A stretch of 64,000 nt of DNA. It comes from Escherichia phage vB_EcoM-RPN226. The notes beneath the pieces are model-generated. The model saw only the letters and a program-made list of their open reading frames with translations. It made no database searches and was not told the DNA's origin. The number at the start of each line of letters is the position of its first letter. The stretch's first letter is position 1. Positions 32,524 to 38,043 of this stretch are shown one piece after another. The position numbers and the translations under genes are program-made. The stretch lies in sequence record OL770073.2. One strand, 5' to 3'.

Positions 32524-33528
32524 ATGTTTAAAAAGTATAGCAGTCTTGAAAATCATTACAACTCTAAATTTATTGAAAAACTTTATAGTTTAGGATTGAC
32601 TGGCGGCGAATGGGTAGCTCGTGAAAAGATTCATGGCACAAATTTCTCACTGATTATTGAACGCGATAAAGCAACTTGTGCTAAACGTACTGGACCTATT
32701 CTTCCTGCTGAAGATTTCTTTGGGTATGAAATTATTCTAAAGAATTACGCTGACTCCATTAAAGCAGTACAAGATATTATGGAAACTTCAGCAGTTGTAT
32801 CTTATCAAGTCTTCGGTGAATTCGCTGGACCTGGCATTCAGAAGAATGTCGATTATGGCGATAAAGATTTTTATGTATTTGACATTATTGTTACTACCGA
32901 AAGTGGTGATGTGACTTATGTCGATGATTATATGATGGAATCATTCTGTAATACATTTAAATTTAAAATGGCTCCACTTTTGGGTCGTGGTAAATTTGAA
33001 GAACTTATTAAATTGCCAAATGATTTAGATTCTGTCGTCCAGGATTATAATTTTACAGTAGACCATGCTGGATTAGTTGATGCAAATAAATGCGTTTGGA
33101 ATGCTGAAGCAAAAGGCGAAGTATTTACCGCTGAAGGTTATGTATTGAAACCTTGTTATCCTTCTTGGATGCCTAATGGCAATCGTGTAGCTATTAAATG
33201 CAAGAACTCTAAATTTAGCGAAAAGAAAAAGTCTGATAAGCCTATTAAAGCTAAAGTTGAACTGTCAGAAGCTGATAATAAATTGCTGGTAATTTTAGCT
33301 TGCTACGTTACACTGAACCGAGTAAATAACGTTATTTCTAAAATTGGCGAAATTGGTCCAAAAGATTTTGGAAAGGTGATGGGACTAACTGTTCAAGATA
33401 TTTTGGAAGAAACTTCTCGTGAAGGTATTACTTTAACTCAAGCGGATAATCCTTCCTTGATTAAGAAGGAATTAGTTAAAATGGTACAAGATGTACTTCG
33501 TCCGGCTTGGATTGAATTGGTAAGTTAA
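32524..33528 (+). CDS. rnlB: RNA ligase 2 (gp24.1)
   Basis: 334 aa; KIHGTN adenylyltransferase motif; matches T4 Rnl2. Confidence 0.9.
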
Positions 33529-33535
33529 ATAAAAA

Positions 33536-33551
33536 GGGACCTTTCGGTCCC
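33536..33551. terminator. bidirectional hairpin terminator GGGACC-TTTC-GGTCCC between rnlB and gene 24
   Basis: perfect stem flanked by A-run and T-run. Confidence 0.6.
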
Positions 33552-33557
33552 TTTGTT

Positions 33558-34841
33558 TTATTCATCAACGATAATTTTTGGTAATTTAACACCTAATAAA
33601 ACAGACAAATCTGAACGACCCGCCATTTTATCCATGTCTCCACCATCAATTATTCTTGCTTCTTTTTCATCTTTTGCTACAGTGTAAGGATTTGCAGATA
33701 AAGCATATCTAACCAATAAACCGATAGATGGTTGTAAGCTTTCTGGATCAACCACAACTTTAAATGCACCTACATGTTCAGGGTCATCTAAGTCGAGACC
33801 TTCTGTATACGGAGCATAGAAAATTGATCCGACAATTTCTTTTTCACCAATATTTTCTACTACGCCAACGATTACATAATCTAATGGGCTGTTAGTATCG
33901 CAATAAAGCGGTAAACCATTAGCTAAGAACCCATAGGCATTTTGTGAAAGATATTTATCATCTTCTGGTTTATGTTTTAACCAACCTGATGCAGCAAGAA
34001 TCGCAGCGGCACGAGCTGAAGCAACACAGAACGTTGCAGTATAAGTTGATTCTTTTTGGATATGCGAAACCATTTCACATACCATTCGGTATAATGAACG
34101 ACCAGCTTCAGGTGCAGATGCATAACTCAAATCGATGAATCCACTATCAGTAATTCCTGTAACTTTATAGCGTTTTGACACTGTAATCAAAGACTGCAGA
34201 ATATCTTTATTGATTTCATCTGCCATTTCAGTTGCAAGCAAATCTTCCAAGAAATTAGGAGCATCGAATCCATTTGCTTCTAAATCTTGCGCTAATTCAA
34301 CTGTGATGCCAGTTTTAAGTTTACGAGATTTAACCGCGGTTTGCCATTTATTAATCTGGAATCTAGCATCCGCAATTTCACTATCAGAGCTTTCAAATTT
34401 GCTTGTTGACGCTGCGTCAGAAAATAGACGAACCTTTAAAAGAACAATTGCAATCTGAAGAGCTAGCTCTAAGTCACTTTCTTGAATATCTGCAAATGGT
34501 GTATCTTCTAACACTTTATAGACGATATTATTATATTTGAATAAATCGCCTTTATTGAGAGTTAATTTAGACTCTTCTGTTAATTCTGTGATTTGTTCTC
34601 GGTCTACGTATCCAGCTTCGCCAGCATAAGTAGCACCAGTTTTAAATGTAAATTCGTTATCTGGGTTAAGGTATTTGATACCGTAAAAAGCAGCAACAGG
34701 TTGATTAGTTCTTTGCGTTGCTACAATGTCAGAATATATTAATTTAGTGGTAGCGCGAGTCAAAGCAACGAGATTTGGGCGACCGATTGAGTTGCTATTC
34801 GTTGTGGTTGATTCGCGCAGAAGTTCGTTGATTTTAGCCAT
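33558..34841 (-). CDS. 24: capsid vertex protein gp24
   Basis: 427 aa, same length as T4 gp24; paralog of gp23. Confidence 0.9.
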   Translation of the reverse strand: MAKINELLRESTTTNSNSIGRPNLVALTRATTKLIYSDIVATQRTNQPVAAFYGIKYLNPDNEFTFKTGATYAGEAGYVDREQITELTEESKLTLNKGDLFKYNNIVYKVLEDTPFADIQESDLELALQIAIVLLKVRLFSDAASTSKFESSDSEIADARFQINKWQTAVKSRKLKTGITVELAQDLEANGFDAPNFLEDLLATEMADEINKDILQSLITVSKRYKVTGITDSGFIDLSYASAPEAGRSLYRMVCEMVSHIQKESTYTATFCVASARAAAILAASGWLKHKPEDDKYLSQNAYGFLANGLPLYCDTNSPLDYVIVGVVENIGEKEIVGSIFYAPYTEGLDLDDPEHVGAFKVVVDPESLQPSIGLLVRYALSANPYTVAKDEKEARIIDGGDMDKMAGRSDLSVLLGVKLPKIIVDE

Positions 34842-34868: not shown

Positions 34869-34876
34869 TATTTATA
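34869..34876 (-). promoter_or_regulatory. late promoter TATAAATA (minus strand) for gene 24; a second copy lies at 34899-34906
   Basis: plus strand TATTTATA twice within 40 nt upstream of the gene 24 start. Confidence 0.5.
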
Positions 34877-34915
34877 CTTTTCACGTGATGTGATAAAATA
34901 TTTATAGGAGGATTT

Positions 34916-36427
34916 ATGTCTATTGATATTTATAAAGATAAAAATGGCAAGCTGAACAAGAACTGGAAAATGATACACGCTAAACACCCTGAAATCATTG
35001 ATAGTATTGAGTTGCCATATGATGACCCTAAAACAAAAATCGTTTTAGCGATAAACGGAATGACAGAACTTAGCCGCTGTAAAAACTGTGGTGTTGAGAT
35101 GGATATCTCGAAGCTTGGCTCAGATTATTGCTCTAGAAAGTGTTCAGCTAACTCATCTGAAGTTAAGAGGAAAAAGCTTGATAGCATTAATCTTGAAGAA
35201 CGCGGCAAAAAAATTTCTGAATCTCTTAAAGGTAAATCCACTGCAAAATCTTGGAATACTCGTAAGAAAAAGTATGGTGAAAAAGGATTTAGCCAAACTG
35301 GGATAGAAGCTATCAAAAATAACGGAGTTAATTCTAGCGAAAAACGAATTAATACAATGATTACCCGTTATGGAGTTAAAAACCCGTTTCAACTGGAAAG
35401 CGTGATTGAAACTATATCCAAGGTTCAAACAGAGAATAACACCGCACGAAACCATTTACCCGGTTGGCTGTATGATAAGAATAAATTTAAACAAGTTTAT
35501 TCTAAATCTGGAATTAGAGGAATAATCAAAAAATCTGGCTGCGGTGCAAATTTAGCATATGTTTTATCACGTGAATATCAGCTCCGAGATATGAAAACTA
35601 CTTCGGCCGAAACAGAGATTCTGAGTTTTATTAATGAACTCGGGTTTGAAGCAGAGAAGACGCGCCAAGTGATAGCACCTTTTGAGCTGGATATCTATGT
35701 CCCAGAGAAGAAGCTTGCTATTGAGTTCAACGGTCTTTACTGGCACAGTTCAGGCTCAAAGGAACAGGACATTATTAAGAATAACCATCTCAAAAAGACT
35801 GAGATGTGTGAAGCACAAGGAATTCATCTGCTGCATATCTTCGAGAATGAATGGGTAGATGATACTAAACGCGAGATATGGAAATCGGTTATTAGAAATA
35901 AACTTGGTAAATCTGAACGCATCTATGCGCGTAAATGTAAGGTACATCCGGTTGATTCTAGAGCTGCTAAAGAGTTTTGTGAGTATAACCATTTACAGGG
36001 TCATGTCCCATTCCAGAATGCCCTGGGTTTATTCTATAACGATGAATTAGTACAGTTGGTCACATTTGGCAGAGGCCGCTATCAAGGTAAAACCGAATTA
36101 CTTCGTATGTGCACAAAACGTGGATACAGCGTAGTAGGTGGTGCTTCAAAACTTCTCAAGGATAAGAAATTTATTTCTTATGCTAACCGTAGATGGTCTA
36201 TGGGTAATGTGTATCAACAGATCGGTATGAAACAGATTGGTGTTACTCCGCCGTGTGACTATTATTTTGATAAAGGCCGTCTGTATCACAGGTCAAGTTA
36301 TATGAAACACTTATTAAAAGACAAGCTCAAAGTTTTTGATGAAAATCTTAGCGCGATAGAAAACTGTTATAACAACAAAATAAGAAGAATTTGGGATTGT
36401 GGTAATATAGTTTATGAATCCCAATAA
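34916..36427 (+). CDS. multi-domain putative nuclease (zinc ribbon, NUMOD-like motif, Vsr/DUF559-like PD-(D/E)xK core, unknown C-terminal domain); candidate free-standing homing endonuclease
   Basis: 503-aa ORF with AGGAGG RBS; CKNCG...CSRKC zinc ribbon; EERGKKISESLKGK NUMOD3-like motif; FELDIYVPEKKLAIEFNGLYWHSS...GIHLLHIFENEW nuclease-like core; antisense between genes 24 and 23. Confidence 0.65.
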   Translation: MSIDIYKDKNGKLNKNWKMIHAKHPEIIDSIELPYDDPKTKIVLAINGMTELSRCKNCGVEMDISKLGSDYCSRKCSANSSEVKRKKLDSINLEERGKKISESLKGKSTAKSWNTRKKKYGEKGFSQTGIEAIKNNGVNSSEKRINTMITRYGVKNPFQLESVIETISKVQTENNTARNHLPGWLYDKNKFKQVYSKSGIRGIIKKSGCGANLAYVLSREYQLRDMKTTSAETEILSFINELGFEAEKTRQVIAPFELDIYVPEKKLAIEFNGLYWHSSGSKEQDIIKNNHLKKTEMCEAQGIHLLHIFENEWVDDTKREIWKSVIRNKLGKSERIYARKCKVHPVDSRAAKEFCEYNHLQGHVPFQNALGLFYNDELVQLVTFGRGRYQGKTELLRMCTKRGYSVVGGASKLLKDKKFISYANRRWSMGNVYQQIGMKQIGVTPPCDYYFDKGRLYHRSSYMKHLLKDKLKVFDENLSAIENCYNNKIRRIWDCGNIVYESQ

Positions 36428-36437
36428 ACGAAAAAAA

Positions 36438-36455
36438 GGGAACCCGAAGGTTCCC
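36438..36455. terminator. bidirectional hairpin terminator GGGAACC-CGAA-GGTTCCC between the 503-aa ORF and gene 23
   Basis: perfect 7-bp stem flanked by A7 and T5. Confidence 0.65.
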
Positions 36456-36477
36456 TTTTTATTTTCTAAATTAAATC

Positions 36478-38043
36478 TTAGATACCTTTCACGTATACAC
36501 GGCGGAAGTAAGCATTTTTACCAAGGCTATTCAGAATAGAAGGCATACCGCTCTGGATGCGAGAAGCCGGAGCCTGAGCAGCGGATTCTGCAAATGGGTT
36601 GATACCGATACCGTAACGAGTTTTGAAACCCATAACAGGCTGGAAATTTTTCGGATCAGAACCACGCAGCGGAGTCAGAGCTACATATGGAGCATAGTAA
36701 ATACCAGCATCCATTTCGTTCGGACCTTTATAACCTACAGTGAAATAATCCTGTTTAGCATACTGGTCGATATATACACGGTATTTACCACCCAGAACAC
36801 CAGCAAATACTGACTTGGTAGTATCAGTGTTAAAGCCGGTAGCCAGACCCTGTGCAGCATAAGAAATGCCAGTATCAACTGAAGCCAGAACGTTAACTAC
36901 GTTACGGGAAGCGATAATGAAGTTACCTTCACCACGACCGGTCTGACGAGCAATTTCAACTGCTTCTTTGTCAATCTGGAACAACAGAGCTTTAAAGGAT
37001 TCACCCGCCCAGCGAGCACCACGAATATCAATCGGATCCTGGAAGTCAAATACACCAGCTTTAGAACCCGGAGTCAGGGTCATACCAGATTTACCAACCT
37101 GAGCTGAGTAGTTAATCCAATCAACAACTTCACGGTTGATTTCCAGCATGATTTCGGTAGCCAGAATACCAGACAGTTCAGCATCAGCATCCATACCGTG
37201 AACAGCGCGGAGGTCTTGTGCTAATTCGATAGAGTAAGCAGCTTTCAGCTGACGAGATTTAGCTTCGATAACTTGTTTATCGATACGGAAGCCCATTTCA
37301 TTCCATGGGTTATCGGTAGAACCGTTGAAACTTTCCTGGAGTTCAGCGATAGAAGTAGCCATACCTTCAGCGATTTCTACCAGTGCACCAGCTTCCATTT
37401 GTTTCTTAATTTCAGCATCTAATTTAGCTGCGTCAGTTGCACTTGAACTAATTGTTACTTGAGCAGAAGCTTGCAGATACACAGTACCAGTGTCCTGGAA
37501 GAAGTGAGTATAGATATCACCTGCTGTGGTTTGTGTGCTAGCAGCCAGAGCTGCGAATTTCTTAGCAGCACCCTGACCAGAGAACATTGCATCTGGACCA
37601 TACATTGGGTGGAATGCTTCTTTAGCACCAGAAGCGACCGGGTCTTTACCATATACTGCGCGCAGTGCGAATACCTGGCCAGTCGGGCTGTTCATCGGCT
37701 GAACACCGCAAATATCGAAAGCAATCAGGTTAGGAATAGCACGACGTACCATACCCATAACAGCTGGGCCAATCTGAGTTACTGCGCCAGAAGTCTGACC
37801 TGCAGCGATGTTGGTAGCATTGTAACCGTGGTCACCGCCGATTTCAGCTTCTGTTAAGAAAGAACCAAATGCCTGAGCAATTTTTTCGTCTTTGTACTCT
37901 GGAGCTGTCTGGAAATCTTTTTCCTGGTTTTCAAAGATTTTAGCGATAATCGCTTGTTTGCTATTAGCAATTTCCGGTAAACCTTCACCTTCCAGTAATG
38001 GCTTCCATTTGTTCAAAAGTTCAGCTTTAGTTTTGATAGTCAT
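36478..38043 (-). CDS. 23: major capsid protein gp23
   Basis: 521 aa; MTIKTKAELLNKWKPLLEGEG matches T4 gp23. Confidence 0.95.
   Translation of the reverse strand: MTIKTKAELLNKWKPLLEGEGLPEIANSKQAIIAKIFENQEKDFQTAPEYKDEKIAQAFGSFLTEAEIGGDHGYNATNIAAGQTSGAVTQIGPAVMGMVRRAIPNLIAFDICGVQPMNSPTGQVFALRAVYGKDPVASGAKEAFHPMYGPDAMFSGQGAAKKFAALAASTQTTAGDIYTHFFQDTGTVYLQASAQVTISSSATDAAKLDAEIKKQMEAGALVEIAEGMATSIAELQESFNGSTDNPWNEMGFRIDKQVIEAKSRQLKAAYSIELAQDLRAVHGMDADAELSGILATEIMLEINREVVDWINYSAQVGKSGMTLTPGSKAGVFDFQDPIDIRGARWAGESFKALLFQIDKEAVEIARQTGRGEGNFIIASRNVVNVLASVDTGISYAAQGLATGFNTDTTKSVFAGVLGGKYRVYIDQYAKQDYFTVGYKGPNEMDAGIYYAPYVALTPLRGSDPKNFQPVMGFKTRYGIGINPFAESAAQAPASRIQSGMPSILNSLGKNAYFRRVYVKGI

Follow-up and report, generated by a model that had tools for sequence, protein, structure and literature searches.

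The open reading frame (ORF) at 34916..36427 on the + strand of a 64,000-nt stretch of Escherichia phage vB_EcoM-RPN226 (OL770073.2; this whole stretch is referred to as the window) is best explained, with a probability that we put at roughly 0.77, as the gene of a free-standing Hef-type homing endonuclease of the Vsr-like EDxHD subfamily, carried on a selfish cassette of about 1.56 kb that is set between the gene 24 promoter and the gene 23 terminator. The ORF begins with ATG, encodes 503 amino acids (aa) plus a stop, and runs antisense to both of its neighbours, gene 24 (33558..34841, - strand) and gene 23 (36478..38043, - strand); a strong Shine-Dalgarno sequence, AGGAGG (34906..34911, + strand), stands 4 nt before the ATG, and the gene is intact. 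All of this agrees with a preliminary reading made from the letters alone (hereafter the sequence-only reading). RPN226 is a Tequatrovirus, and the 15 kb around the ORF are up to ~97% identical to its closest relatives in our collection of phage records. The ORF product is 100% identical to RPN226_gp158, which is annotated as “hypothetical protein”, and the literature search identified no paper discussing this gene. What was a hypothetical protein of a T4-like coliphage of the therapeutic type may now be called a Hef-like homing endonuclease, and each of its three domains has an assignment; it is a previously unannotated member of a known family, with the known nuclease–Mom-like architecture. 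A second Hef-like gene was looked for in the window and none was found.

The family assignment covers the protein almost from end to end. PHROG 3339, labelled “homing endonuclease”, matches aa 6-502 at E = 2e-142, and Hef of the T-even phage U5, with which the family was founded (GenBank AY262133, with the record product “homing endonuclease”), matches aa 72-503 by BLASTP at E = 3e-111 with 43% identity. A tblastn search against some 50,000 phage records gave 425 matching records, and many of the matches listed are annotated as “Hef-like homing endonuclease”; at least 3,829 proteins match the ORF product at E ≤ 1e-5 in a word-indexed search. A scan against PADLOC, a library of defence systems, returned the “HEase” model only (E = 1.5e-6). 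The “bacteriophage Hef type homing endonucleases” were already placed in the Vsr-like EDxHD family by Taylor et al. 2011 (PMC3239194). Profile searches of the separate segments supported a nuclease fold, and the homologues they brought up are not conserved structural proteins.

Two other nuclease classes were considered. The lack of a GIY-YIG motif, remarked on in the sequence-only reading, is borne out by Pfam: the ORF product has no GIY-YIG match at E ≤ 1, and none appears among the best 25 of the 37 Pfam families matched by 50 homologues. PHROG 559, labelled “HNH endonuclease”, also matches the protein (5e-82, aa 21-501). We rejected an HNH identity because neither Pfam nor NCBIfam gives an HNH match for the ORF product, nor is there any HNH domain in the homologues; for the same reason, the PHROG 559 label appears to be a mis-annotation of a Hef-like group.

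The nuclease domain occupies aa 221-328 (35576..35899, + strand) and is recognized by PDB, Pfam, Foldseek and PADLOC comparisons alike. It holds the string ELDIYVPEKK...AIEFNGLYWHSS...GIHLLHIFENEW (aa 257-313), which had been read from the letters as a Vsr/DUF559-like core of the EDxHD/PD-(D/E)xK type, a reading that stands. The single sequence matches PDB entry 3r3p, the catalytic domain of I-Bth0305I, at E = 0.0017, and a profile of the nuclease segment built from 22 homologues does so at E = 8.7e-6; in these homologues Pfam finds REase MTES_1575 in 22 of 22, Vsr in 10 and DUF559 in 5. A structure prediction of the region led to the same place. With an AlphaFold2 (AF2) model of aa 1-330 (predicted local distance difference test, pLDDT, 88), the top Foldseek match was again 3r3p (probability 1.00, TMt 0.63), followed by Vsr itself (1cw0 at rank 3, 1vsr at rank 7) and the endonuclease-like NGO0050 (3hrl, rank 9), with uninformative mitoribosomal proteins interleaved among these ranks.

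The HMMER alignment onto I-Bth0305I pairs E232 with E170, D259 with D196, N272 with N208 and H277 with H213, where the roles of the I-Bth0305I residues are taken from PMC3239194; the four paired residues are conserved in the homologues. Across 120 homologues D259, H277, H291, K294 and T295 are invariant and E270 is kept in 119. We regard E232, D259, E270, N272 and H277 as candidate catalytic residues on the strength of this alignment and conservation.

That the gene behaves like a mobile insertion is visible in the slot between genes 24 and 23. Aligned to the empty site of vB_EcoM_CE1, RPN226 carries an insert of ~1,558 bp (34878..36435, + strand) where CE1 has 13 bp (CATAAAAACAACT); its left junction lies just past the late promoter native to gene 24, its right junction at the gene 23 terminator hairpin. 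Within Tequatrovirus the slot is found in three states: empty, with an 83-bp spacer, in CE1 and ESh25; filled by segD in T4; and filled by the Hef-like gene in RPN226. Presence/absence polymorphism, defined junctions and a site beside a conserved gene are thus all observed, and the comparison of the 24-23 interval across T4-like genomes upholds the earlier suggestion of an autonomous mobile cassette in the place of segD. The same suggestion had treated the antisense orientation as a contrast to T4, which is wrong, because in T4, too, the slot gene segD runs antisense to genes 23 and 24 (PMC2988022).

The gene is an immigrant in Tequatrovirus, judging from the discrepancy between its own relatedness and that of its surroundings: gp24 and gp23 on either side share 99% and 98% identity with their T4 counterparts, whereas the nearest relative of the ORF product is 79% identical by local alignment (74% in the tabulated search) and comes from an unassembled Logan metagenomic contig whose gp23 is 89% identical. 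No other member was found in its 90%-identity cluster among 5.8 billion clusters (~15 billion sequences). The next relatives, at 47-63% by tblastn and 53-63% by local protein alignment, are full length, N-terminal region included. They occupy exactly the same 24|23 slot, in antisense orientation, in Yersinia Tegunavirus, Providencia phage PSTCR6, Pseudomonas Jiangsuvirus and Acinetobacter Lazarusvirus.

Beyond the slot copy, the genomes of phages phiR1-RT and PSTCR6 each encode one more Hef-like protein, a divergent paralogue, at a different location. These second copies align over approximately the C-terminal 56-61% of the query, that is, over the nuclease and Mom-like module, and they show its reuse with different N-terminal regions. 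Several paralogues per genome are typical of homing-endonuclease gene families.

The N-terminal part opens with a C4 zinc ribbon, C55-x2-C58 ... C72-x3-C76 (35078..35143, + strand). The CxxC...CxxxC pattern had been noticed at the outset; it is joined here by weak zinc-finger Pfam matches and by the invariance of all four cysteines across 50 aligned homologues. A helical region of the DUF7487 type follows (35144..35575, + strand), wholly alpha-helical in the AF2 model and containing two K..T...(K/R)YG repeats that start at aa 111 and aa 143. Pfam DUF7487 is weak on the RPN226 protein (E = 0.009-0.049) and is found in 30 of the 50 homologues, with E-values reaching 4.8e-30. For the N-terminal fold, the PDB matches that Foldseek returned were all uninformative helical-repeat mitoribosomal proteins.

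The sequence-only reading had proposed a NUMOD3-like motif in this part, at aa 94-107. We dropped this identity as a visual resemblance only: the isolated segment has no Pfam match to NUMOD3 even at E ≤ 10, the family is absent from the best 25 of the 37 Pfam families matched by the 50 homologues, and the residues fall within the DUF7487 match, so that the region is better described as a DUF7487-type repeat. Short motifs score poorly in such searches, and a distant relationship to NUMOD3 is possible.

Taken together, the zinc ribbon and the DUF7487 repeats probably set the target specificity, with the helical region as the probable DNA-binding, target-recognition region, since this part of the protein is variable and tracks the insertion slot: identity to the RPN226 N-terminal region is 35-58% in the same-slot orthologues versus 25% in U5 Hef, which sits in the nrdA|nrdB slot. 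A slot-dependent N-terminus followed by conserved nuclease and Mom-like parts fits a recognition region joined to a conserved catalytic module.

The last third of the protein, some 170 residues that the sequence-only reading had left without an assignment, is a Mom-like domain of the GNAT fold (aa 329-503; 35900..36424, + strand). Using the full-length AF2 model (pLDDT 89), the top PDB match of the C-terminal part in Foldseek is Mom of phage Mu (8bv8_A, E = 5.3e-6, probability 1.00, 189 aligned columns), and many GNAT acetyltransferases rank behind it. The Pfam family Mom (PF25680) scores the whole protein at E = 0.0015 and the isolated domain at E = 8e-5, in the latter case short of the gathering score; among 22 homologues, 11 have a match, the best at 4.8e-7. 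A search of the C-terminal profile against solved structures yielded a marginal GNAT match only (E = 1.2) and no Mom, and the link to solved structures therefore needed fold comparison. Annotators of Acinetobacter phages already label such fusions “nuclease/acetyltransferase”.

We used hhalign of the C-terminal profile against the single Mu Mom sequence for residue mapping only, together with the structural and Pfam matches, as its alignment, though sensible, has a low probability (4%, E = 0.01). The Mom residues needed for momylation are H58, Y59, R111, S124, D149, R151 and Y159, and alanine mutation of D149 greatly lowers activity (PMC13219725). Five of the seven are kept in the RPN226 protein: H58, R111, R151 and Y159 correspond to H359, R397, R426 and Y433, each invariant in the 120 homologues, and S124 corresponds to S411 (S in 119/120). 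The remaining two are replaced, Y59 by L360 (L in 113/120) and D149 by N424 (N in 105/120, D in 15/120), and on account of these two replacements we speak of a Mom-like domain and not of a Mom enzyme.

The nuclease and Mom-like parts form an invariant module across the whole Hef subfamily; the subfamily is very large, with more than 14,000 clusters at 50% identity, and the C-terminal domain alone leads to 14,775 cluster representatives at that level. The role of the Mom-like domain is a family-wide question and not one particular to the RPN226 locus. Its invariance in proteins with different targets argues against a role in sequence-specific recognition, and the conservation of the Mom active-site equivalents argues against a mere scaffold. 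Most likely it would be a non-catalytic or altered-function module for DNA handling or dimerisation, derived from a DNA-adenine-modifying enzyme. It is possible, if unlikely, that the domain is functionally active, in which case it might, for example, flip and read an adenine at or near the cleavage site, or modify it covalently with an aminoacyl-tRNA or acyl-CoA as donor. If true, Hef-type endonucleases would couple cutting to a transaction on a DNA base, e.g., to mark or protect their own genome or to license cleavage. For Mom itself, the demonstration that it modifies DNA in a tRNA-dependent manner is recent.

The same domain opens the way to a different reading of the entire protein, as a bifunctional enzyme resembling a restriction-and-modification system: the Mom-like domain would modify the phage's own adenines in a momylation-like, possibly aminoacyl-tRNA-dependent reaction, and the nuclease domain with its restriction-endonuclease (REase) fold would attack unmodified DNA of the host or of competitors. 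Mom domains fused to REase-fold nucleases are known from jumbo phages, for which Iyer et al. 2021 proposed just such a role (PMC7824862). In the RPN226 protein, the five retained active-site equivalents are conserved at 99-100%, Mu Mom is the top structural match, and in the AF2 model helices occupy the place of Mom's essential helix-turn-helix (HTH)-like insertion. The substitutions at the positions of D149 and Y59 speak against this possibility. Furthermore, glucosylated hydroxymethylcytosine (glucosyl-hmC) already protects the DNA of T-even phages. The gene also acts like a homing gene, with its slot polymorphism, its recurrence in the slot across genera, its slot-specific N-terminus and its paralogues, and U5 Hef, annotated as a homing endonuclease, is described as cleaving nrdB, the gene adjoining its own locus (PMC2988022). 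A bifunctional restriction/momylation enzyme is possible and, given its poor fit to the slot behaviour, quite unlikely.

The regulatory signals around the ORF raise another alternative. The native late-promoter motif of gene 24, TATAAATA, lies at 34869..34876 (- strand) and is common to the empty-site CE1. A second TATAAATA is found at 34899..34906 (- strand), in insert-specific DNA, and the first base of the Shine-Dalgarno sequence of the endonuclease gene falls within it. At the other end, a bidirectional intrinsic-terminator hairpin of 12 pairs (36433..36460), common to T4 and CE1, serves both gene 23 and the 3′ end of the endonuclease gene. The bracketing by gene 24 late promoters and a bidirectional terminator, as first described, is therefore real.

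These signals are what an inactive or decaying homing relic, or a domesticated regulator of the capsid genes, might be kept for, if the DNA carried signals that genes 23 and 24 need. The second late-promoter motif inside the insert and the terminator shared with gene 23 go in this direction; embedded host signals are known to favour the retention of endonuclease genes, and an antisense gene flanked by the two late genes with the highest expression may itself be expressed at a very low level, as was argued for segD (PMC2988022). The ORF is nevertheless full length in comparison with all close homologues, with a strong Shine-Dalgarno sequence, and decay is unlikely because every invariant residue of both conserved domains is intact. 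Moreover, gene 24 does not need the insert for its expression, given that its own late promoter persists outside the inserted DNA. We consider a relic or a domesticated regulator very unlikely. A structural or capsid-associated accessory protein, for which only the position between genes 24 and 23 speaks, is excluded in practice by the strand opposite to the capsid genes, by domains that are, as far as detectable, all nucleic-acid related and by the empty slot of close relatives with normal capsids.

Some further observations concern transcription at this locus. As the second TATAAATA is part of the insert, the cassette may add a late promoter to gene 24, with the translation start of the endonuclease overlapping a divergent promoter. 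For the endonuclease gene itself, a candidate extended -10 element, TGATAAAAT, can be proposed at 34891..34899 (+ strand). An extended -10-like box, ATGATAwwAT, is located upstream of the slot genes in phiR1-RT, PspYZU05, KARL-1, Apostate and T4 segD, 16-31 nt before the start codon in five of the slot loci examined, and is a candidate shared promoter of the slot genes. According to a 2010 review, no segD-specific promoter could be found (PMC2988022). A second bidirectional terminator-like hairpin is present at 33533-33554, between the convergent rnlB (ending at 33528) and gene 24 (ending at 33558), and any upstream read-through on the + strand toward the endonuclease would have to cross it.

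As a Hef-type homing endonuclease, the RPN226 protein would be expected to work as its family does. The N-terminal region would bind a particular sequence within or close to the conserved capsid genes 23/24 of cassette-less phages infecting the same cell; the Vsr-like domain would then cut the DNA, with E232, D259, E270/N272 and H277 as the putative working residues; and recombinational repair from the cassette-bearing genome would copy the gene, together with some flanking DNA, into the cut genome. The analysis shows the domain identities, the homology, the polymorphism of the slot and its repeated occupation across genera; we infer the steps just described, i.e., activity, target and homing, along with the role suggested above for the Mom-like domain, from the family.

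Several points weigh against the homing-endonuclease interpretation. The last acidic residue of the EDxHD set, D222 in I-Bth0305I, aligns with the variable N289, and near this position the Hef subfamily carries the invariant H291/K294/T295 instead. The near-perfect conservation of the Mom active-site equivalents is not explained by a purely structural C-terminal role. The homing status of T4 SegD, the other occupant of the slot, was given as “not determined” in the 2010 review (PMC2988022). Finally, no dedicated promoter could be assigned to the gene convincingly, and the candidate extended -10 element would give a very short leader.

We also searched the flanks for a trace of the target site. 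The last 213 nt of gene 23 (36478-36690) have ten synonymous changes relative to T4 and CE1, and over this stretch the identity of every record in the phage collection stays at or below 96.2%, whereas nearby DNA is 97-100% identical to relatives. Seven of the synonymous substitutions cluster in gene 23 codons 462-472 (36628..36660, - strand), which may represent a co-conversion tract or a target-site variant linked to the cassette; 36490-36516 is the other notable stretch of substitutions at the gene 23 3′ end. Since these changes are not consistently common to other Hef-bearing phages, the patch is a possible footprint, to be taken as a lead and not as a claim about the target. Another patch, in gene 24 (34458-34557), has 10-11 mismatches to T4 and CE1, including a changed ATIEESDLE peptide. 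We rejected it as a footprint: the interval that contains it, 34440-34580, recurs with 100% identity in Escherichia phage FL12, a phage without this cassette, and the patch is ordinary T-even mosaicism.

Among known systems, the prototype of the EDxHD, Vsr-like nucleases, I-Bth0305I (3r3p), has the same catalytic fold as the RPN226 nuclease domain. It differs in being intron-encoded, in its length of 266 aa, in having the nuclease domain at the C-terminus and in being devoid of a Mom-like domain, and its D222 has no clear counterpart in the RPN226 protein. Mu Mom (8bv8), a tRNA-dependent DNA adenine aminoacyltransferase of the GNAT superfamily, is the best structural match for aa ~330-503 and shares with it the motifs ELxRM, SxA(D/N)xR and GxVYQ, in which the equivalents of H58, R111, S124, R151 and Y159 lie. 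The two are only ~17% identical, however, and besides the changes at D149 and Y59 (to N and L), W181 is also replaced by L; Mu Mom is free-standing, whereas the RPN226 domain is fused to a nuclease.

The closest counterpart in overall build is U5 Hef, whose source study is Sandegren, Nord & Sjoberg 2005 (Nucleic Acids Research, NAR, 33:6203), as cited in PMC2988022 and PMC3239194. It has the same three-part build, the identity being 66% for the nuclease domain and 55% for the Mom-like one, and its gene is likewise free-standing in an intergenic slot beside a conserved essential gene of a Tequatrovirus. The locations differ, since U5 hef lies in sense orientation in the nrdA|nrdB slot, where it replaces mobE, whereas the RPN226 gene lies in antisense orientation at 24|23, in the place of segD. 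With an N-terminal region only 25% identical and a protein 41 residues longer, U5 Hef is expected to have a different target.

The genes most directly comparable in location are those in the slot between the vertex and major capsid genes of other phages: g177 of phiR1-RT and the corresponding genes of fHe-Yen9-01, TG1, PSTCR6, PspYZU05 and Lazarusvirus, annotated as “homing endonuclease” or “putative nuclease/acetyltransferase”. The stop codon abuts a hairpin in each of the three closest loci (phiR1-RT, PspYZU05 and the Logan contig). All of these genes sit in other genera, and the RPN226 gene is the sole same-slot copy found in Tequatrovirus; a single Hef lineage tracks the 24|23 slot across at least five Straboviridae lineages.

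In T4, exactly this intergenic slot is taken by SegD, likewise antisense and with the gene 24 late promoter and the gene 23 terminator again on its two sides, but SegD belongs to the GIY-YIG family, has 223 aa and shows no sequence similarity to the RPN226 protein. Two unrelated families of selfish nucleases, the GIY-YIG SegD and the Hef-like proteins, have taken the same few base pairs in the same orientation, and their occurrence in one slot across several lineages makes the 23/24 junction a good natural system in which to study competition and replacement among homing genes.

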